DNA of 64,000 bases. It comes from Candidatus Latescibacterota bacterium (GTDB lineage: Bacteria > Latescibacterota > UBA2968 > UBA8231). The stretch's first letter is position 1. Each line of letters starts with the position of its first letter. The stretch covers positions 1,824,001-1,888,000 of the forward strand of contig OZ242214.1 of the NCBI GenBank assembly GCA_965206595.1, read 5' to 3'. The position numbers and the translations under genes are program-made. Under the pieces are notes generated by a model. It saw only the letters and a program-made list of their open reading frames with translations. It did no database searches and was not told where the DNA came from. This document shows positions 6,533 through 14,496 of this stretch, one piece after another.

Positions 6533-7825
6533 ATGGAACGAGTAGAAATTCGGGACATCGCCGCTTTTGATGGCCGCGAAGTCGAGTTGAGGGGTTGGCT
6601 CTACAACAAGCGGTCGAGCGGCAGGCTCCACTTCCTGCAAGTCAGGGACGGGACCGGCCTCATTCAGTGCGTATTGTTCAAAGGAGATATCGGTGTCGAG
6701 GAGTTCGTGCGTACCGGGAACCTGCCCCAGGAGTCGGCGATTGTCGTCAGGGGGAAGGTGCGCCAGGATCAGCGCTCCGCACTCGGCTACGAACTGGGGG
6801 TCTCATCGATCGAAGAAGTCCACGAGGCCGCCGAATACCCGATTTCACCGAAAGAACACGGGGTGGCCTTCCTGATGGAAAACAGGCACCTCTGGCTGCG
6901 CTCCTCCCGCCCACACGCTACGTTGAGAATCCGCAGCTACGTCATCCAGGCCTGCCGCGACTTCATGGCTCGGGAGGGATTCATCCTGATCGATGCCCCG
7001 ATTCTGACTCCTGCTGCCTGCGAGGGAACCACCACGCTTTTCGAGACCGACTATTTCGGGGACACTGCCTTCCTTACCCAGAGCGGCCAACTGTACATGG
7101 AAGCAGCGGCCATGGCGTTCGGAAAGGTCTACTGCCTGGGACCGACCTTTCGGGCGGAGAAATCGAAGACGCGGCGACACCTTACGGAGTTCTGGATGAT
7201 GGAGCCGGAGATCGCCTACTGCGACCTAGAGGGCAACATGCAGGTTGCCGAAGACCTCATCTGTTTCGTTGTCCAGCGCGTACTCGAACAGGGCGGTGAC
7301 GAGCTCGCTGTGCTGGAGCGCGACCCCGCCCCCCTGGAAGCGATGTCGAAGCCGTTCCCGCGAATGACCTACGACGAGGCGGTCGTAACTCTTCGGAACA
7401 ATGGGAGGGATATCGAGTGGGGAACGGACTTGGGCGCAGACGACGAAAGTGTTCTTTCGGAACAGTTCACTTCACCGGTCCTCGTGCATCGCTACCCTGC
7501 GGAGGTAAAAGCATTTTACATGAAGCGAGATCCGGAGAACGACAAGCTCGCTCTCTGCGTCGACATGCTGGCTCCCGAGGGATACGGGGAGATCATCGGC
7601 GGCGGCCAGCGCGAAGATGATCTGCCGGTCCTCGAGGAACGTCTCGAAGAACACGGCCTGCCGCGAGTGGCCTTCGAGTGGTATCTCGACCTGCGCCGAT
7701 ACGGTTCCGTGCCGCACTCCGGTTTCGGAATGGGGATAGAACGTGTGGTAGGGTGGCTTTGTGGGATCAGGCACGTGCGCGAGACCATACCGTTTCCACG
7801 GATGCTGCAGCGGCTGTATCCTTGA
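6533..7825 (+). CDS. asnS: Asparagine--tRNA ligase
   Basis: OB anticodon domain (LRGW, RDGTG); [68 protein letters not shown]. Confidence 0.96.
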
Positions 7826-7865
7826 GCAAGTATCGGACGAGACAACGACCTTGAAGACAACAGAG

Positions 7866-10793
7866 ATGAAGGGAAGTTATCGGTTTCAGGAGATTGAACG
7901 TCGCTGGCGTCAGCGATGGCTGGGGGAGAAGACGTTCAAGACGCACGGTCCCGGTGAAAGCTCAATCGCCGATTCCCGGCCCAAGTGTTATGTCCTCGAC
8001 ATGTTTCCCTATCCCAGCGGGGACGGCCTCCACATTGGCCACCCCAAGGGTTACATCGCCAGCGACATCTACAGCCGCTTCAAGAGGATGCGCGGATTCA
8101 ACGTTCTGCACCCGATGGGATTCGACAGCTTCGGCCTGCCTGCGGAACAGTACGCGATCGCCAACAACGTGCACCCGTCCACGGCGATACGCGAATGTAT
8201 CGATCGCATGCGCGGGCAGCTTCAGGCCTTGGGTCTGGCCTACGACTGGGATCGGGAGCTGGCGACTTCGGACTCGGACTACTACCGCTGGACCCAGTGG
8301 ATCTTCCTGCAGCTCTACGACTGCTGGTTCGACCCGGATGCGGTTCAGATGGACGCCGCAGGTCGCGAGATCAAGGGAAAGGCAGTGCCGATCCGGGAGC
8401 TGGAAGATGCACTTGCCAATGGACGGCGTGCTCTCTTCGACCGCGATCTCGAAACCCTGGTCTCGCTTCCAGGAGGGGAAAGCAGAGACCGTTCCCATGC
8501 CGGCTGGTCCCGGCTGACGGAACCGGAACGGGCCGCGGTGCTAAACAACTATCGGTTGGCCTATCAGAAAGAGGTGACGGTCAACTGGTGCCCTGGGCTG
8601 GGCACGGTCCTGGCCAACGAAGAAGTCACTGGGGAGGGCCGTAGCGAGATCGGCGATTACCCAGTGTACAAGCGGCCACTTAGGCAGTGGATGCTGCGTA
8701 TCACCGCCTACGCTGATCGCCTGTTGCACGATCTGGATTCAGCAGATCTGCCCGACGGACGCGGGGGCCGCTACGCCCTGGATTGGCCGGAGCCGATCAA
8801 GCTGATGCAGCGGAACTGGATCGGGCGCAGCGAAGGGGCGGAGATTTTGTTCGACCTGTTGCAGCCGGAATCCCGCGAAACCGCGACGCCCCTGAAAGTG
8901 TTCACGACTCGTCCCGACACCTTGTTCGGGGCAACCTTCATGGTAGTCGCTCCCGGTCACCCGCTTCTCGACCCGGACAGTTCCGGGTATCTCGTGCCCG
9001 CGCATTGGCCCCAAGGCACGAGGGAAGCCTGGAAAAATGGGGGGGCGTCCGGGCCGTGGGAAGTGGTTGCCGACTATGTCGCCACTGCAGCGGAAGCTAT
9101 AGAGGTGGCAAGGGAAATCGACGAACGGGAGAAGTCGGGGGTGTTCACGGGAATATGGGCCCGCAACCCGGCCAGCGGTGTTGTGATTCCGGTTTTTGTC
9201 GCCGACTACGTCTCGATAGAGTACGGAACCGGCGCCATAATGGCGGTTCCCGCGCACGACGACCGCGATTTCGAGTTTGCGAACAACTACGATCTCGAGG
9301 TGATCCAGGTCGTCCAGGCGCCCGAGACCGCCGGGGTGGAAGAGGGGGAGTGCTTCATCGGCGATGGCACCAGCATCAATTCGCCCGCCGACGGCGACAG
9401 CGACTTCTCCATCACGGGCCTGTCGACGGCCCGGGCAAAGGCAGCAATCACCTCTGCACTGGAAAGCGCTGGCGTGGGACGATTTGCGGTTCGCTACAAG
9501 CTGCGCGACTGGACCTTTTCCAGGCAAAGGTACTGGGGAGAACCCTTCCCGCTGGCTACCACCCCCGACGGTTATTCGGTCGTTACCGATCTACCTGTCC
9601 TGCTCCCAGAGATGGAGGACTTCCGTCCGCAAACCTCGGATGATCCCGACACTCCGGTTTCCCTGCCCCTGGGGCGTGCCGGCGACGACTGGCGGGTGGT
9701 CCCCGTAAAGGGAATCGAATGCGAGAGGGAACTGAACGTCATGCCCCAGTGGGCGGGGTCCTGCTGGTATTTCGTGCGCTTTATCGATCCCGCCAACCCA
9801 GAGACATTCTGCAACGCTGACAAGGAGCGGCATTTCATGCCGGTCGATCTCTACATCGGCGGCGCCGAGCACGGGGTGCTTCACCTGCTGTATGCCCGGT
9901 TCTGGCACAAGGTGCTGTTCGACCTGGGGCACGTCTCCTCACCCGAGCCGTTCAAGAAGCTGTTCAATCAGGGAATGATTACGGCCGATGCTTTCACCGA
10001 CGCCCGCGGCGTCTACGTCGACATCCGCGAGGTCGAGCTGCGCGATAACAAACCCTTCCACTTGCGGACCGGGGAGGCCCTGACTCGTTCCGGCGGCAAG
10101 ATGGGGAAGCGCTACAAGAACGGGCTGCCCCCGGAGGAGGTTGGGGAGGAGTACGGCGTCGACACCCTGCGCCTGTACGAAATGTACATGGGCCCCCTCG
10201 AGCAGAGCACGCCGTGGAGCATGGAGGGAATACGAGGAATGCAGCGCTTTCTGCAGCGCGTGTGGCGCAACCTGGTTTCTCAGGAGGGAACGGCCAGGAG
10301 GCTTCCTCCGGGACAAGAGGAAGATGTCGCGTTGCGCAAGAAGCTTCACCGGACGATCTCCAAGGTGACGGATGATATCGAGGGATTGCGGCTTAACACC
10401 GCCATCGCGGCCCTGATCGAGCTCAACAACGACCTGGTAAAAAAGGAGCCGGTTTCGGACGAGATGGCCCGTTCCCTTATCCTGATGCTCTCGCCGTTCG
10501 CCCCTCACCTTGGAGAGGAGCTGTGGAGCATCTGGGGTTTCGGCGACGGAAATCTCTCGGTCCAGGACTGGCCGCGGCCCCAGGCGGATCTGATGGTCGA
10601 AGAGACCGTGATTTTGCCTGTGCAGGTCAACGGCAAGGTCAGGGCGAGCGTTGAAGTGCCAGCCGGAATCACCGAAGACGCGGCAAGAGAGTTGATCCTC
10701 GAACTCGAAAACGTTCGCCGCTACCTTCCGGATTCAGGACGGCCCAGGCGGTTTGTGTACGTGCCAGGTAGAATCTTCAATATCGTAGTCTAG
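7866..10793 (+). CDS. leuS: Leucine--tRNA ligase
   Basis: MFPYPSG.GLHIGH, GFDSFGLPAE, FTTRPDT, GTGAIMAVPAHD, DW.FSRQRYWGEP, YIGGAEH..LHLLYARF; KMSKS motif reads KMGKR; start moved to ATG 7866. Confidence 0.97.
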   Translation: MKGSYRFQEIERRWRQRWLGEKTFKTHGPGESSIADSRPKCYVLDMFPYPSGDGLHIGHPKGYIASDIYSRFKRMRGFNVLHPMGFDSFGLPAEQYAIANNVHPSTAIRECIDRMRGQLQALGLAYDWDRELATSDSDYYRWTQWIFLQLYDCWFDPDAVQMDAAGREIKGKAVPIRELEDALANGRRALFDRDLETLVSLPGGESRDRSHAGWSRLTEPERAAVLNNYRLAYQKEVTVNWCPGLGTVLANEEVTGEGRSEIGDYPVYKRPLRQWMLRITAYADRLLHDLDSADLPDGRGGRYALDWPEPIKLMQRNWIGRSEGAEILFDLLQPESRETATPLKVFTTRPDTLFGATFMVVAPGHPLLDPDSSGYLVPAHWPQGTREAWKNGGASGPWEVVADYVATAAEAIEVAREIDEREKSGVFTGIWARNPASGVVIPVFVADYVSIEYGTGAIMAVPAHDDRDFEFANNYDLEVIQVVQAPETAGVEEGECFIGDGTSINSPADGDSDFSITGLSTARAKAAITSALESAGVGRFAVRYKLRDWTFSRQRYWGEPFPLATTPDGYSVVTDLPVLLPEMEDFRPQTSDDPDTPVSLPLGRAGDDWRVVPVKGIECERELNVMPQWAGSCWYFVRFIDPANPETFCNADKERHFMPVDLYIGGAEHGVLHLLYARFWHKVLFDLGHVSSPEPFKKLFNQGMITADAFTDARGVYVDIREVELRDNKPFHLRTGEALTRSGGKMGKRYKNGLPPEEVGEEYGVDTLRLYEMYMGPLEQSTPWSMEGIRGMQRFLQRVWRNLVSQEGTARRLPPGQEEDVALRKKLHRTISKVTDDIEGLRLNTAIAALIELNNDLVKKEPVSDEMARSLILMLSPFAPHLGEELWSIWGFGDGNLSVQDWPRPQADLMVEETVILPVQVNGKVRASVEVPAGITEDAARELILELENVRRYLPDSGRPRRFVYVPGRIFNIVV

Positions 10794-10832
10794 ATGCTGG
10801 CTGGTTGGATGGTTCCGATTTTCTAAGATGAA

Positions 10833-10860
10833 ATTACCTGTAAAATTTATTTTGTAAACT
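10833..10860 (+). other. dif-like Xer recombination site A (degenerate)
   Basis: ATTACCTGTAA-AATTTA-TTTTGTAAACT: 11-6-11 layout; right arm 10/11 identical to the B. subtilis dif XerD-type arm TTATGTAAACT. Confidence 0.55.
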
Positions 10861-10901
10861 AACCCGCCCCGACTTGGTGAACCGCCCGCCAAAACGGCCT
10901 G

Positions 10902-10950
10902 TTGGGTACCCGAAAATAAACTTCGTATAATTGTAGTTAACAAAACTAAT
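10902..10950 (+). promoter_or_regulatory. Recombinase promoter overlapped by loxP/dif-like site B
   Basis: TATAAT at 10926-10931 with TTGGGT 18 bp upstream; overlaps ACTTCGTATAA-TTGTAG-TTAACAAAACT (10920-10947); 10917-10929 matches the loxP arm ATAACTTCGTATA at 11/13. Confidence 0.6.
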
Positions 10951-10960
10951 CTAAAGACAC

Positions 10961-11890
10961 ATGGCTGAACTTCTCCCTTCAGTATCTCCGAAAGAGCTCG
11001 CCAATTCCGGCACAGTACGGGAACTGGTTACGGCCAGCGTCTCGGAGAACACACGCCGGGCCTATCGGCACGCGCTAAGCAGGATCGACCAGCACCTTGC
11101 CGGGGGTCCGTTGACAGACGGATTGCTTGCCGACTATATCGCGGGCTTGCACGTATCCGGAAAATCTCCGGCGACCTGCTCCCAGGTAATCGCTGCTGTC
11201 AAGTTTCGAGCAAAGTTGCAAGGTTCACCTTCTCCATCCGGTCCGGCAACGGACAGAGTTCTGGCGGGTATTCGCCGCGCGGGCAAGGGCCGCGGTCGTG
11301 GCCAGGTACAGGGCGTTCAGTTTGCCCAGGCGGACGCCGCGGCTGCAGTTGCTTCCGACGACTCATTGGCCGGAATGCGGGACTCCGCCTTGCTGGCTGT
11401 CGCCTCGGATGGCCTGCTCCGCGTTTCGGAAGTCGCCGGTGTGCAAGTAGCCGACATCTCCTTTGAAATCGACGGTACAGCGCGTTTGACGATCCACCAA
11501 TCGAAAACGGATCAAGAAGGAGCCGGAGTCGTTCTGTTCCTCGGCGAGCCGACGGCCTGGCGGGTCAAGACCTGGATGGATGCTGCCGGGATCGAGGATG
11601 GACCCGTTTTCCGGCGTCTTCACCGCGGCGACAGTGTTGGAAAAAAAGCCCTGAGCACCGTATCCGTCCGCAACATCATAAAGCGCCGATGCGCTGCGGC
11701 GGGAATCGACGGAGATGTCTCTGGTCATTCCCTTCGGGTAGGTGGCGCCCAATCTCTTGCTGCGGGAGGTGCTTCGATTGCGGAGATGCAGACTGCCGGC
11801 CGTTGGACATCCCCGCAAATGCCCGGTCACTATGCACGCGGCCAGTTGGCAGCGCGAGGCGCCGTGGCGAGAATCCGTTACGGTTCCTGA
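10961..11890 (+). CDS. Cre-like tyrosine recombinase
   Basis: SENTRRAY N-domain; RDSALL, LLRVSE (Arg I), SKTDQ (Lys), SGHSLRVG (HxxR), GRW (Cre-type Trp), PGHYAR (Tyr nucleophile), C-terminal GAVAR helix like Cre GAMVR. Confidence 0.92.
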   Translation: MAELLPSVSPKELANSGTVRELVTASVSENTRRAYRHALSRIDQHLAGGPLTDGLLADYIAGLHVSGKSPATCSQVIAAVKFRAKLQGSPSPSGPATDRVLAGIRRAGKGRGRGQVQGVQFAQADAAAAVASDDSLAGMRDSALLAVASDGLLRVSEVAGVQVADISFEIDGTARLTIHQSKTDQEGAGVVLFLGEPTAWRVKTWMDAAGIEDGPVFRRLHRGDSVGKKALSTVSVRNIIKRRCAAAGIDGDVSGHSLRVGGAQSLAAGGASIAEMQTAGRWTSPQMPGHYARGQLAARGAVARIRYGS

Positions 11891-11977
11891 CTGGCCGGGG
11901 TCCCAAGGAACAGTTGATATTCCGCAGACACAGGGTGTTCTGGAATTTCCGGGTAAACCCTCACTAATGTCCCACGG

Positions 11978-12005
11978 GATTTACATAAGAAATATTATGT
12001 GAACT
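11978..12005 (+). other. dif site C (best match, probable chromosomal dif)
   Basis: GATTTACATAA-GAAATA-TTATGTGAACT: 11-6-11 near-palindrome with canonical CATAA...TTATGT inner arms; lies where gene orientation converges. Confidence 0.75.
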
Positions 12006-12037
12006 ATGGTTCTAAGAACTCGCCCTTTTTCGGCTGT

Positions 12038-13855
12038 TCAGGTGCGACCGAACAGCCTGTCGAGATGGCTGAGTGTAATCCGAATAAAAATGGGTCTTCC
12101 GTGAGGGCAGGAAAAGGGCTCTTGCGCCTTCAGCAACCGCTGAATCAGGGTCCGCATTTCTTTCTGATTCAGGCGGTCTCCTGCCCGAATTGAAGTGTGG
12201 CAAGCCATCGAAGCCGCGACTGCCTCCTGAGTTGTCGGTCGAGTCTCGTTCTCCTCGATCAGGTCGCTGACGATCTCCTGAAATAGGGCTCCGTCTCCCC
12301 AGTTTCTGAGTTCGCTCGGGATGGAATCGACAATCAGGCTGGTAGGACCGAATTCACGCGCTCCAAAGCCGATTCTTTCGAACAAGTGGCGAGCATCCTG
12401 AAAAGCAATCATCTCCAAGGGAGACACGTCGAGCGTCAGGGGCAACAGCAGCTGTTGGGAGGTTCCCTGCTCCCGGTCGAGCTCCTCCAGAACCTCCTCG
12501 AAACGGATGCGTTCGTGAGCGACGTGCTGGTCGACTATGGCGATGCCGTCCGAGGTCGGTGCCGCGATGTACTTGTTGTGGATCTGCCACATCGGGGCTG
12601 AATCTGCGGCCGATGACAGTTGGTCAATCTCCTGTGGCGTCAGCGGTTGACCTGCACTCTCCGCGGTCCCCAGCCTGGCCGGAGGCAACAGGGAAAGCGA
12701 CAACTGATCGAGGTCGGTATCGTGCTCCGGGCCGAACGGTTCAGCGGGAGTCTCCAGTACCCTGCCGTGTCCCGCTGCCCCGGTAGATGGTGCCCCGTAA
12801 GCAGGTCTCTCCCCCGTCGAGCCGATTCCGGAAGCAGCTCTGAACGCGCTTGCCTCGGGAACGTCTAGTGCCTGTCGCACAATGGATTGCACTGCCTTGA
12901 CGAGATCCCCTTCCGAGGAGAAGTGGACCTCTTTCTTGGTGGGATGGACGTTTACGTCGACGGTCCTGGGATCGATGTCGAGCCAGAGCGCAAATACCGG
13001 GTGCGCATTATGGGGCAACAGGCTGCCGTAAGCTTCGTATACTGCGGAGTTCAATTTCCGGTGGTAAACAGGCCGGCGGCGGACTGTCGCGTATTGCCGG
13101 GTGCGACTGCGCTGACATATTTGCGGGGATCCTGCCAGCACCTCTACCGAGATTCGACCGGCCGCTCCAGCATCGACGTTTGAGGCCGCGTGCAGCAGTA
13201 GGTCCTGGTCGACGGCAACCACCTGAGAGACGCGTTTCGCGCGGTCACCCGAGTGGAGGTCGAGGGTCACGCGGTCGTTGTGGGTCACGCGGAACGCCAC
13301 CTCGGGATAGGCGACGGCTAACTGGGAGACACACTGGGTTATGTAACGGGCTTCGGTATCCATGTGACGGAGGAATTTTCGGCGCGCCGGGGTGTTGAAG
13401 AACAGGCTGCGTGCACTCACCGTAGTGCCGCTGTCCCTGGCGATGGCACCGAGATGAGTACGGACTCCACCTTCCACCTCGATCCGGGTGCCTTCTCCCT
13501 CTCCCCCATTGCAGGTTTCGATGGTCAGCCGGGAAACCGCCGCGATGCTGGCCAAGGCCTCCCCTCGAAATCCCAGTGTGTCGATGGCGAACAGGTCACT
13601 GGGACTCTTCATCTTACTGGTGGCGTGGCGCTCCACCGACAGGCAGGCGTCCCCGGCGTTCATCCCGGCGCCGTCGTCGGCAACGCGGATCAGCTGCCTG
13701 CCCCCGGCAGCGATGTCGACGTAGATGCGTTCCGCGCCCGCATCGAGAGAGTTCTCGACCAGTTCCTTGACCGCTGAGGCCGGTCTTTCTATCACCTCTC
13801 CCGCGGCGATCTTGCCGATTACGTTTTCGGACAGTCTGTGTATGGTCGCACTCAT
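12038..13855 (-). CDS. mutL: DNA mismatch repair protein MutL
   Basis: IAAGEVIERPASAVKELVENSLDAGA, TLGFRGEALASI, VDVNVHPTK, endonuclease motifs DQHVAHER and CPHGRP; start set at MSATIH. Confidence 0.97.
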   Translation of the reverse strand: MSATIHRLSENVIGKIAAGEVIERPASAVKELVENSLDAGAERIYVDIAAGGRQLIRVADDGAGMNAGDACLSVERHATSKMKSPSDLFAIDTLGFRGEALASIAAVSRLTIETCNGGEGEGTRIEVEGGVRTHLGAIARDSGTTVSARSLFFNTPARRKFLRHMDTEARYITQCVSQLAVAYPEVAFRVTHNDRVTLDLHSGDRAKRVSQVVAVDQDLLLHAASNVDAGAAGRISVEVLAGSPQICQRSRTRQYATVRRRPVYHRKLNSAVYEAYGSLLPHNAHPVFALWLDIDPRTVDVNVHPTKKEVHFSSEGDLVKAVQSIVRQALDVPEASAFRAASGIGSTGERPAYGAPSTGAAGHGRVLETPAEPFGPEHDTDLDQLSLSLLPPARLGTAESAGQPLTPQEIDQLSSAADSAPMWQIHNKYIAAPTSDGIAIVDQHVAHERIRFEEVLEELDREQGTSQQLLLPLTLDVSPLEMIAFQDARHLFERIGFGAREFGPTSLIVDSIPSELRNWGDGALFQEIVSDLIEENETRPTTQEAVAASMACHTSIRAGDRLNQKEMRTLIQRLLKAQEPFSCPHGRPIFIRITLSHLDRLFGRT

Positions 13856-13875
13856 GATTTTGGGGGCTACCGGAG

Positions 13876-14496
13876 TTACAGGCGCGCGGAGATTTCCTCC
13901 ACCTTGCGGTCGCGCTCCTCTATAGAGATCAGTCCTTCGCGGAACTGGCTTTCTACTTCCTGCAGCATCTGTCGAGGACTGCCGAAGCGGAGATTGTTGC
14001 GTGCCTGGGCGACCAGGTGCCAGATCCCCAGCCCGAGCATGCCGAACACGACGGCTGCCCACAGTCCGGTTTTGCGGTGCGTACCCGGCTCCCCTTCCCT
14101 TACGGAAATCCCGAGCTTGCCCCACACCTGCCGTTGCGCAGCAGAGATCGGCTGGCTGAACTCGACAAAGACAGAGCTTGCGGCCGTTCCTCCCTGGTTT
14201 TCGACGTACTCGGGCGCGCGTGGGTCCCCTGCATCGCGCAAATTAAAGGCGCTGCGCAGCTCCGCGGTCAGACTCGCCGGTCCCTGGATGACGATACTTT
14301 CCACCACTCCCGCCTGAGAGAGCTCGAGGAAACGATCCTCGTCCACCGGGGTCGCTTCCCCACCCAGTGCGTTGATCAGAACGAGCACGGCCATTAGGCC
14401 GGAGGCCAGCATCAGGGCCAACCTGACCGGCCCAATGGCCGGAATTTCCGAGTCCGGCCGGGAAGAAGGTCCAACTTTCGGTTCGCGCTCCAGCAT
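13876..14496 (-). CDS. Two-TM membrane protein with FtsH-extracellular-like domain and SHOCT-like tail
   Basis: TM (LALMLASGLMAVLVLINAL); DRFLELSQAGVVESIVIQG resembles the FtsH periplasmic domain; second TM; LQEVESQFREGLISIEERDRKVEEI resembles SHOCT. Confidence 0.6.
   Translation of the reverse strand: MLEREPKVGPSSRPDSEIPAIGPVRLALMLASGLMAVLVLINALGGEATPVDEDRFLELSQAGVVESIVIQGPASLTAELRSAFNLRDAGDPRAPEYVENQGGTAASSVFVEFSQPISAAQRQVWGKLGISVREGEPGTHRKTGLWAAVVFGMLGLGIWHLVAQARNNLRFGSPRQMLQEVESQFREGLISIEERDRKVEEISARL

Follow-up and report, generated by a model that had tools for sequence, protein, structure and literature searches.

A Cre-family recombinase gene and a lox-like site occupy an exchangeable cassette slot at the chromosomal dif of a Latescibacterota bacterium

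Results and discussion

A single recombinase gene between convergent leuS and mutL

The window analyzed here is a stretch of 64,000 nucleotides (nt) from Candidatus Latescibacterota bacterium (G000:C1:1,824,001-1,888,000, where G000 is the source genome, a single contig of 7,053,161 bp, or 7.05 Mb). Our subject is the short interval between the convergent genes leuS and mutL, which contains one open reading frame (ORF) and three candidate recombination sites, designated A, B and C (Table 1). The ORF encodes a Cre-like tyrosine recombinase, hereafter P0001. Comparison with related genomes shows that the leuS-mutL interval is a slot bounded by inverted dif sites and filled by one or the other of two mutually exclusive cassette types.

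A preliminary description of this DNA, made from the letters alone, had reported a lone Cre-like recombinase gene bracketed by two directly oriented dif-like sites at the apparent replication terminus. The ORF list and Pfam confirm a single gene for a 309-aa (amino acid) tyrosine recombinase between the convergent leuS and mutL ends, and direct reading reproduces the sequences and coordinates of A and C. Each of the three sites ends in AACT and is followed by A, as described. Consensus scoring of A and C also bears out that the gene is bracketed by dif-type sites, with the XerD-type arm of C pointing toward the gene. No phage or island genes were found among the ORFs listed for the leuS-mutL interval, and an Rfam search of positions 10600-12200 returned zero matches.

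Table 1. Genes and sites of the leuS-mutL interval, in window coordinates
Feature	Position	Strand	Sequence	Remarks
leuS (leucyl-tRNA synthetase), left flank of slot	7761..10793	+		Pfam tRNA-synt_1_2, tRNA-synt_1, Anticodon_1; real start perhaps later
Site A, decayed dif-type (probable)	10833..10860	+	outer arm ATTACCTGTAA, spacer AATTTA, inner XerD-type arm TTTTGTAAACT	read directly
Site B, AT-rich and lox-like, readable as 13-8-13	10917..10950	+	TAAACTTCGTATA-ATTGTAGT-TAACAAAACTAAT	ends 10 nt ahead of ATG
Possible -10 box of recombinase gene	10926..10931	+	TATAAT (exact hexamer)	straddles border of B left arm and spacer
P0001, predicted Cre-family tyrosine recombinase, 309 aa	10961..11890	+		PF00589, PDB sequence matches
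Site C, chromosomal dif	11978..12005	-	as written, GATTTACATAA-GAAATA-TTATGTGAACT; canonical on - strand, AGTTCACATAA-TATTTC-TTATGTAAATC	
mutL, right flank of slot	12038..14125	-		Pfam MutL_C, DNA_mis_repair, HATPase_c_3; real start perhaps later

P0001 is a predicted recombinase of the Cre family

P0001 matches the Pfam tyrosine recombinase family PF00589 at 1e-14. When it was compared with PDB sequences by phmmer (E<=0.01), all 17 matches were Cre or Cre-derived, and no XerD, XerA, XerH or integrase chain was returned. The best of these (E 1.7e-19) aligns residues 56-305 of P0001 with residues 71-338 of Cre, a distant similarity. Residues R154, K182, H256, R259, W282 and Y291 align with the LLR, TKT, GHSARVG, GGWT and NYIR motifs of Cre. 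The PDB matches and this alignment together confirm the Cre-type catalytic residues of the preliminary description, and P0001 is accordingly a predicted Cre-family tyrosine recombinase with all catalytic residues in place. We rejected the assignment of P0001 as a canonical Xer protein: NCBIfam Xer models score it at 29-43 bits against cut-offs of 220-335 (34-43 bits with XerC and XerD models, both cut off at about 330), and the NCBIfam XerS model gives no match.

Within genus g1, comprising G000 and its relatives G001 and G002, the ratio of nonsynonymous to synonymous substitution rates (dN/dS) of the slot gene is 0.10-0.12, at dS values of 0.6-1.0. The gene is thus under purifying selection.

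The chromosomal dif, site C, lies at the replication terminus

For scoring, we used the family consensus CATAA-N6-TTATGTAAA, in which TTATGTAAA is the XerD-type arm. Across the genome this pattern occurs once without mismatch (site C, on the - strand), three times at no more than one mismatch, eight times at no more than two and 64 times at no more than three. The stricter pattern CATAA-N6-TTATG has a single occurrence in 7,053,161 bp, which is again C, a 28-bp 11-6-11 site present as one perfect copy in 7.05 Mb. A better dif elsewhere in G000, such as one at a distant inversion of GC skew, was sought by this genome-wide consensus scan, and none was found.

The position of C (genome coordinates 1,835,978-1,836,005) agrees with this assignment. 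Cumulative GC skew peaks at 1.855-1.87 Mb in a plateau on which C sits, and the local minimum at 5.203 Mb coincides with dnaA. The cumulative orientation of GGGNAGGG, which we take from E. coli to be the FtsK-orienting motif, peaks at 1,832,630, 3.3 kb from C; over 800 kb on the left the motif runs forward 202 times and in reverse 88 times, and on the right the corresponding counts are 115 and 193. Because C is the sole CATAA-N6-TTATG in the genome, lies 3.3 kb from the switch in GGGNAGGG polarity and sits on the GC-skew plateau, we identify it as the dif of this chromosome, located at the replication terminus, as had been proposed.

The arms of C are perfect in both G000 and G002, yet all six spacer bases differ between these genomes. 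In G001, a 41-bp deletion relative to G000 has removed the dif spacer and outer arm, leaving the inner arm only; A, B and the recombinase gene are intact. The G001 assembly, which is 93% complete, has no other dif site better than two mismatches, and two-mismatch matches are no commoner there than those of a control pattern.

The runner-up dif-type site of G000, with one mismatch, is at 121,435 (CACAAATAATTTTATGTAAA, G000:C1:121,435-121,454). It lies in AT-rich DNA beside a gene for an NtrC-like regulator, and cumulative GC skew has its global minimum ~20 kb away, at 100 kb. The skew curve is irregular, with further local extremes near 3.4, 4.8, 5.2 and 6.4 Mb, for which large rearrangements or an assembly problem are possible explanations. 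The polarity of GGGNAGGG is flat between 5.5 and 7.0 Mb.

The leuS-mutL interval is a slot with two alternative cassettes

We took the DNA past the mutL stop codon from 30 relatives (labeled G001, G002 and so on), scanned 15 loci of the host family for dif, and searched 16 genomes of three other bacterial families (f2-f4) for comparison. A recurring order was apparent: leuS is followed by a dif on the + strand, next comes a recombinase gene whose 5' side bears a two-armed site, and a second dif, on the - strand, separates it from mutL. The XerD-type arms of the slot's dif sites face inward. At 8 of the 30 relatives' loci, leuS is no more than 1.5 kb from mutL. Both dif sites have at most one mismatch and are inverted in G004, G020 and G006, and G012 has the same inverted pair around a cassette that is flipped relative to the 13 other mutL-linked loci. 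A dif-type site within ~100 bp of the mutL stop was detected at 10 of the 15 family loci (nine at no more than one mismatch, and that of G019 at three). The 16 loci of the other three families carry a different gene beyond mutL and no such dif site.

The first cassette type encodes an Xer-like recombinase that is divergent, scoring ~130 bits against XerC and XerD models, with E. coli XerD as its nearest solved structure. This cassette is single-copy in 17 of 24 family genomes, where its gene lies within 1 kb of mutL in 14, and is found in none of the 16 genomes of f2-f4. A palindrome, P (ACTAnCGATAA-N6-TTATCGnTAGT), precedes the Xer-like gene at all six loci inspected. The second type, a Cre-like gene with site B, fills the slot in G000, G001 and G002, from one genus (85-87% identical), and in G019, a member of another genus, g18 (64% identical). 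The two types were never found together: the four genomes with a Cre-like gene in the slot lack the Xer-like cassette, and the 19 Xer-like loci inspected (14 adjacent to mutL and 5 further loci from g18) have no Cre-like gene there.

These results recast the expectation of an empty or alternative allele in relatives. An alternative filling was found, the Xer-like cassette, and the cassette called lone is one of two that occupy a family-wide slot. Within g18, all five further genomes inspected have the Xer-like cassette in the slot and G019 alone has the Cre-like one; a close Cre-like homologue is present in only 2 of 10 g18 genomes, and one of those is outside the slot. Given this distribution, the Xer-like cassette is the ancestral one, and the Cre-like cassette either replaced it at least twice or passed between two lineages. 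A Cre-like homologue in G091 (60% identity) was considered as a slot occupant and set aside, as it is located elsewhere.

The slot of G019 has a leuS-side dif on the + strand, followed by two - strand sites that form direct repeats around the cassette and resemble the mutL-side sites of different g18 genomes. The idea that these flanking sites are hybrid attL and attR sites is weakened by the mutL-side site, which matches the native site of G091 and has the same spacer. At one locus with the other cassette type (L091, G023:C5:1,592,356-1,595,925), a 231-aa ORF lies between the Xer-like gene and P and is probably an insertion into the cassette.

Site A resembles a decayed dif in inverted orientation

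Site A has three mismatches to the consensus on the + strand, two of them in the XerC-side core. It belongs to the 64 genome-wide matches at this threshold, corresponding to ~0.011 expected within 1.3 kb of C, and is weak when taken alone. Relatives give it context. Similar sites (three mismatches, + strand) directly follow leuS in G001 and G002, and better ones (0-2 mismatches) do so in G004, G020, G006, G019 and G010; at the position of A, the leuS-side sites of the first four of these have no more than one mismatch. From its sequence and position, A reads as a decayed dif-type site, the counterpart of the relatives' leuS-side dif. It also contains a 13-mer (10845-10857) that resembles the right arm of B at 10 of 13 positions by eye, and A and the right arm of B form an inverted repeat that is 82% complementary.

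The preliminary description had A and C directly oriented. Because A fits the consensus on the + strand only, at three mismatches, and C fits best on the - strand (no mismatches, versus one on the +), the two are most likely inverted, an arrangement that both arm assignment and position favor. C is nearly palindromic, and the sequence alone leaves the orientation of the pair unsettled. Excision of the intervening segment by A x C recombination, also proposed, would then not be expected, as recombination between inverted sites would invert the segment.

The joints listed for the assembled contigs have sides no more than 35 nt long at 85% likeness, one of them skipping 10432-12495, and we took them to be DNA of other organisms. 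In contigs from three runs belonging to two other studies, an additional A follows 10912 and an A>T change affects 10930, the first spacer base of B; within 10200-12700 these contigs have just one further substitution.

Site B is a lox-like site upstream of the recombinase gene

A Cre-type target is a 34-bp site in which a pair of 13-bp inverted repeats encloses an 8-bp spacer (PMC10250229). Site B can be read in this form, and also with a 6-bp spacer. Its left arm in G000 agrees at 11 of 13 positions with the 13-nt lox repeat annotated in the phage P1 record, and the left arms in G001, G002 and G019 agree at 10 of 13. The lox arm is matched at 11 or more positions at 27 places in the genome, counting both strands, so that ~7e-4 would be expected in the 170-nt spacer. 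The two arms of B are symmetric at 11 of 13 positions in G002 and G019. B is present in all four slot orthologues and is kept in G002 where the remaining upstream DNA no longer aligns; as a composite sequence it is unique in the genome (in a scan shifted by 2 nt). In the P1 record, lox lies 435 nt upstream of cre, in the cre regulatory region.

We therefore presume, from sequence resemblance, that B is the target and/or the operator of the Cre-like enzyme, and B is a likelier target than A or C. The earlier placement of B at the promoter agrees with its position 5' of the ATG and with the TATAAT at 10926-10931; the promoter itself is not called by a consensus scan.

The host Xer machinery is partly degenerate

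The genome encodes FtsK (5.567 Mb) and an XerD-like protein, the gene for which lies beside uvrC at 6.814 Mb and scores 281.7 bits against a cut-off of 329.6; the nucleophilic tyrosine is kept in all 10 XerD-like sequences. An XerC-like ORF (G000:C1:5,102,787-5,103,731; L004/L131) is located downstream of topA, and its product is 42% identical to the XerC-like protein of G012. Its frame is open, with serine at the position of the nucleophilic tyrosine and arginine at both conserved histidine positions, so that G000 has XerD-like and FtsK genes alongside an XerC-like protein that lacks the catalytic tyrosine. Among 23 aligned XerC-like orthologues, the tyrosine is absent, and replaced by different residues, in 13 of 19 family sequences (including those of G000-G002 and G019) and is present in all four sequences from other families. 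This pattern suggests repeated decay of XerC catalysis in the host family. The proposal that the Cre-type module replaces XerCD needs qualifying on these points.

A further recombinase, L001 (G000:C1:4,482,492-4,483,370), resembles integron integrases and XerA and scores 212 bits against a cut-off of 220. We dismissed it as the missing XerC because its distribution is patchy (12 of 41 genomes) and its copies are 85-92% identical across genera, which marks it as mobile. Copies occur in four other genera, one of them with an internal stop.

A proposed self-contained module exchanged through Xer sites

The resolution of chromosome dimers is regarded as an unvarying housekeeping task that falls to XerCD or, in a few clades, to a single dedicated Xer recombinase. 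To our knowledge, how one dimer-resolution system replaces another is not known. With about even confidence, we propose that the Cre-like gene and B form a self-contained single-recombinase module that is exchanged via Xer sites and probably resolves chromosome dimers. The slot holds one cassette, a tyrosine recombinase gene with its own two-armed site just 5', and the Cre-family recombinase with B has displaced the Xer-like cassette in g1 and in one g18 genome. Cassettes may arrive or be replaced by way of the Xer sites on either side, through cassette exchange or integration, and the outer dif (A) has since decayed in g1, probably locking the cassette in place. The Cre-like enzyme would bind and recombine B without host Xer proteins. 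FtsK gathers sister termini at the position of B, so that B x B recombination could resolve chromosome dimers, and the overlap of B with the probable promoter may allow the gene to regulate itself.

Several observations lead to this proposal. The cassette behaves as mobile DNA bounded by Xer sites, since in two lineages it has taken the slot over from another cassette, and it looks like a self-contained recombination module because it carries its own lox-like site. A function shared by the two cassettes, and useful to the host, is favored because the types never co-occur and because XerC has lost its tyrosine only in the slot-bearing family. Dimer resolution at the cassette's own site is the obvious candidate for this function. 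Both halves of the earlier suggestion, a dif-integrated element or a Cre-type dimer-resolution module, survive in this form, as an exchangeable cassette with a site of its own; direct orientation of A and C, and a role for them as the enzyme's target, are the less likely readings. A bolder version, which we offer tentatively and with less than even confidence, is that a natural Cre/lox-type module is taking over dimer resolution from a decaying XerCD/dif system, the Xer-like cassette having been displaced at least twice. The decay would be seen in an XerC-like protein without its tyrosine, in the decayed outer dif and in the half-deleted dif of one species.

A number of points weigh against our proposal. 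The pairing of the enzyme with B, like the enzyme's activity itself, is a prediction. Arm symmetry of B is only 5 of 13 positions in G000 and 7 of 13 in G001, which is unusual for the target of a homodimer, and the consensus promoter scan called no promoter at B, with no adequate -35 element. The perfect arms of C in G000 and G002, together with intact XerD-like and FtsK genes, mean that the Xer system may still act and the cassette may be redundant; XerD acting on both near-identical dif arms is possibly the remaining system. The half-deletion of dif in G001 could be an assembly error. Contigs from 4 runs of 3 studies contain the reference arrangement only, although rare forms would be hidden in contigs. 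Related genomes are non-independent samples, and the clade uniting the slot copies of G019 and g1 has weak support (84/56). Finally, the protein family is mobile and multi-copy, it extends to six other phyla (by record title) with homologues at 55-61% identity, and most of its copies have no dif-like site nearby.

These last features bring us to an alternative that we regard as less likely but serious, in which the Cre-like gene and B are a selfish passenger that lodges at dif without a role in segregation, like a dif module or an integrative mobile element exploiting Xer (IMEX). It would lodge there through host Xer recombination or its own enzyme, persist as its inverted flanks cannot excise, and use the recombinase for its own transfer. 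A multi-copy family spread across phyla at 45-61% identity would fit such a life, as would near-identical paralogues in G000 and G001 (branch lengths 0.004-0.012), an intact dif and XerD, and a Cre-like cassette in only one of six g18 slots inspected, which points to recent gain. The direct dif-type sites around the cassette of G019, like those of different g18 genomes, are what integration of a circle would leave, and Acinetobacter plasmids provide documented cases of dif modules being inverted and replaced (PMC13141974). Yet known Xer-exploiting elements are defined by their use of host enzymes, and a recombinase with its site as the only cargo would be odd. The slot cassette in g1 is single-copy and syntenic, with dN/dS ~0.1 maintained across dS up to 1.0, and its strict exclusion of the Xer-like cassette in every genome examined suggests one shared function in place of free accumulation. 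Confinement of the XerC tyrosine loss to the slot-bearing family likewise runs counter to a mere passenger.

A related possibility, the one closest to the preliminary description, is that A and C are direct repeats and that the 1.15-kb segment is a minimal IMEX excised as a circle by XerCD or by the Cre-like enzyme. We judge this improbable. The right arms of A and C do agree at 9 of 11 positions as written, C is nearly palindromic, and two directly oriented sites surround the G019 cassette; against this stand the strand preferences of A and C, the inverted sites at both positions in G004, G020 and G006, and the poor agreement of A with C in the outer arm (4 of 11 positions) and spacer (3 of 6). 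A join of A to C is absent from the contigs of the 4 runs, which is weak evidence, as rare forms drop out of contigs. More improbable still, in our estimation, is that the slot recombinase serves as a second catalytic subunit at dif, partnering XerD in place of the tyrosine-less XerC-like protein, with B and P as operators only. A change of partner would suit the absence of the tyrosine from 13 of 19 XerC-like sequences and its retention in 10 of 10 XerD-like ones, and the recombinase gene is always beside dif, but neither pairing with XerD nor recognition of an XerC-type arm is likely for a Cre-family protein, G019 retains a classical XerC-type arm despite its Cre-like cassette, and B looks like a whole lox site and not like one operator half-site. 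We give very little credence to a chance neighborhood, in which a prophage or island, now decayed, left an ordinary integrase gene near dif. Genes for tyrosine recombinases are common (PF00589 has 13 matches in G000), but the comparative data contradict this reading, as nearly all family genomes examined have a recombinase gene in the slot; the gene here is intact and under purifying selection, and the leuS-mutL interval is free of phage or island genes.

Relationship to known systems

IMEX such as the CTX phage, the gonococcal island and LME-1 rely on the XerCD of the host and are not known to bring a recombinase themselves. The Latescibacterota cassette is like them in being lodged at dif, in having direct dif-type repeats in G019 and in having been gained in some lineages only; it differs in consisting of essentially only a recombinase gene and a site, and the flanking sites in G000 are best read as inverted.

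The dif modules of Acinetobacter offer another parallel. A D-type module on Acinetobacter plasmids has inverted XerC/XerD sites with the XerD arms internal, and dif modules there are found inverted, or replaced by other modules, between related replicons (PMC13141974); chromosomal dif modules are also reported in this genus (PMC12907356). The slot shares with the D module a short segment between inverted 11-6-11 sites (G004, G020, G006), a flipped cassette (G012) and the alternation of Xer-like and Cre-like fillings in one place, even within g18. In contrast, the slot is chromosomal, lies at the main dif of a Latescibacterota host and holds a single module, not an array. Its cargo is a recombinase with a target site and not resistance or toxin-antitoxin genes, and in G000 its outer site has decayed.

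Single-recombinase Xer systems resemble the cassette itself. The difSL site is located immediately upstream of xerS and makes up one module with it, which resolves dimers naturally; the site is suggested to form part of the promoter region, and the module to have been acquired as a unit (PMC1914069). XerL is presented as a single-recombinase system discovered via a dif-integrating element (PMC9765430). XerS/difSL of streptococci and lactococci, XerH/difH, and XerL/dif of Legionellales have in common with the P0001 module a recombinase gene with its own site directly 5', at the terminus. P0001, however, belongs to the Cre family, its module sits inside a pair of dif sites, and it coexists with a canonical dif, an XerD-like protein and a tyrosine-less XerC-like protein. 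P1 Cre/loxP has the same protein family with R-K-H-R-W-Y, a 13-8-13 site upstream, a form in which B can also be read, and an arm matching that of B at 10-11 of 13 positions. Unlike P1, a plasmid prophage, the P0001 locus is naturally chromosomal and at the terminus, and is known here from sequence; the protein similarity is distant (E 1.7e-19) and B is asymmetric in G000. Cre-loxP placed within the E. coli ter region can take the place of XerCD-dif in resolving dimers in an FtsK-dependent manner, with FtsK translocation assisting (PMC2680272).

Among the best-ranked matches of a full-text literature search, dif modules appeared in Acinetobacter only, and we found no Cre-family gene at a chromosomal dif and no inverted dif pair around a recombinase gene; the layout was not described in those matches. 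In this family, dif itself is an exchangeable cassette slot, filled by two unrelated recombinase families in close relatives. This provides a concrete, testable route by which dimer-resolution systems might be replaced, and it extends dif-module biology past Acinetobacter plasmids to the chromosomal terminus of an uncultured phylum. Should P0001 act on B, the two would constitute a new natural Cre-type recombinase/target pair. If the Cre-type module is indeed taking over, the locus would be a snapshot of how single-recombinase systems like XerS/difSL replace XerCD.

Cre-like genes outside the slot

Relatives of P0001 are widespread: 2527 of 8000 scored candidates match it at E<=0.001. In the genome collection they occupy 33 loci, with copies that are 45-61% identical in Gammaproteobacteria, Acidobacteriota, Chloroflexota, Gemmatimonadota, Rhodothermota and Poribacteria, and G000 itself holds 10 matches to the Cre-like gene. 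A metagenome scan yielded 12 loci and no close orthologue of the slot gene. In a phylogenetic tree, the slot copies group weakly (84/56) and are sister to paralogues confined to g1.

The earlier suggestion that homologues might be repeatedly flanked by dif was not borne out, and we discarded dif-flanking as a trait of the whole family. At 23 homologue loci scanned for ATAA-N6-TTAT within 260 nt, the only positives were the G002 orthologue and two identical Longimicrobiales copies, the latter with a B-like palindrome. A perfect relaxed-pattern dif match 0.9 kb from a Cre-like gene in G036, a member of another family, lies inside an ORF and is ascribed to chance, as control counts were similar. 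Some copies have an upstream palindrome of their own, for example a perfect 11-8-11 repeat in G036.

The paralogues of G000-G002 have upstream repeats different from B. Those at G000:C1:3,456,972-3,457,856 and 5,997,077-5,997,985, with copies in G001 and G002 (L032, L036, L039, L045, L031), are near-identical between species (branch lengths 0.004-0.05; near-identical G000/G001 pairs, 0.004-0.012) and share ~170 nt of upstream DNA with a GGTCCTCCTAGAGGAC-type palindrome. This group looks like a recently active mobile element of the Cre-like family. In another genome of the host family, a fragment of a Cre-like gene adjoins a well-formed lox-like 14-6-14 site, ATAACTTCCGATAA-CTGCAA-TTATACGCAGTTAT (L035, G013:C34, at about locus position 1426).

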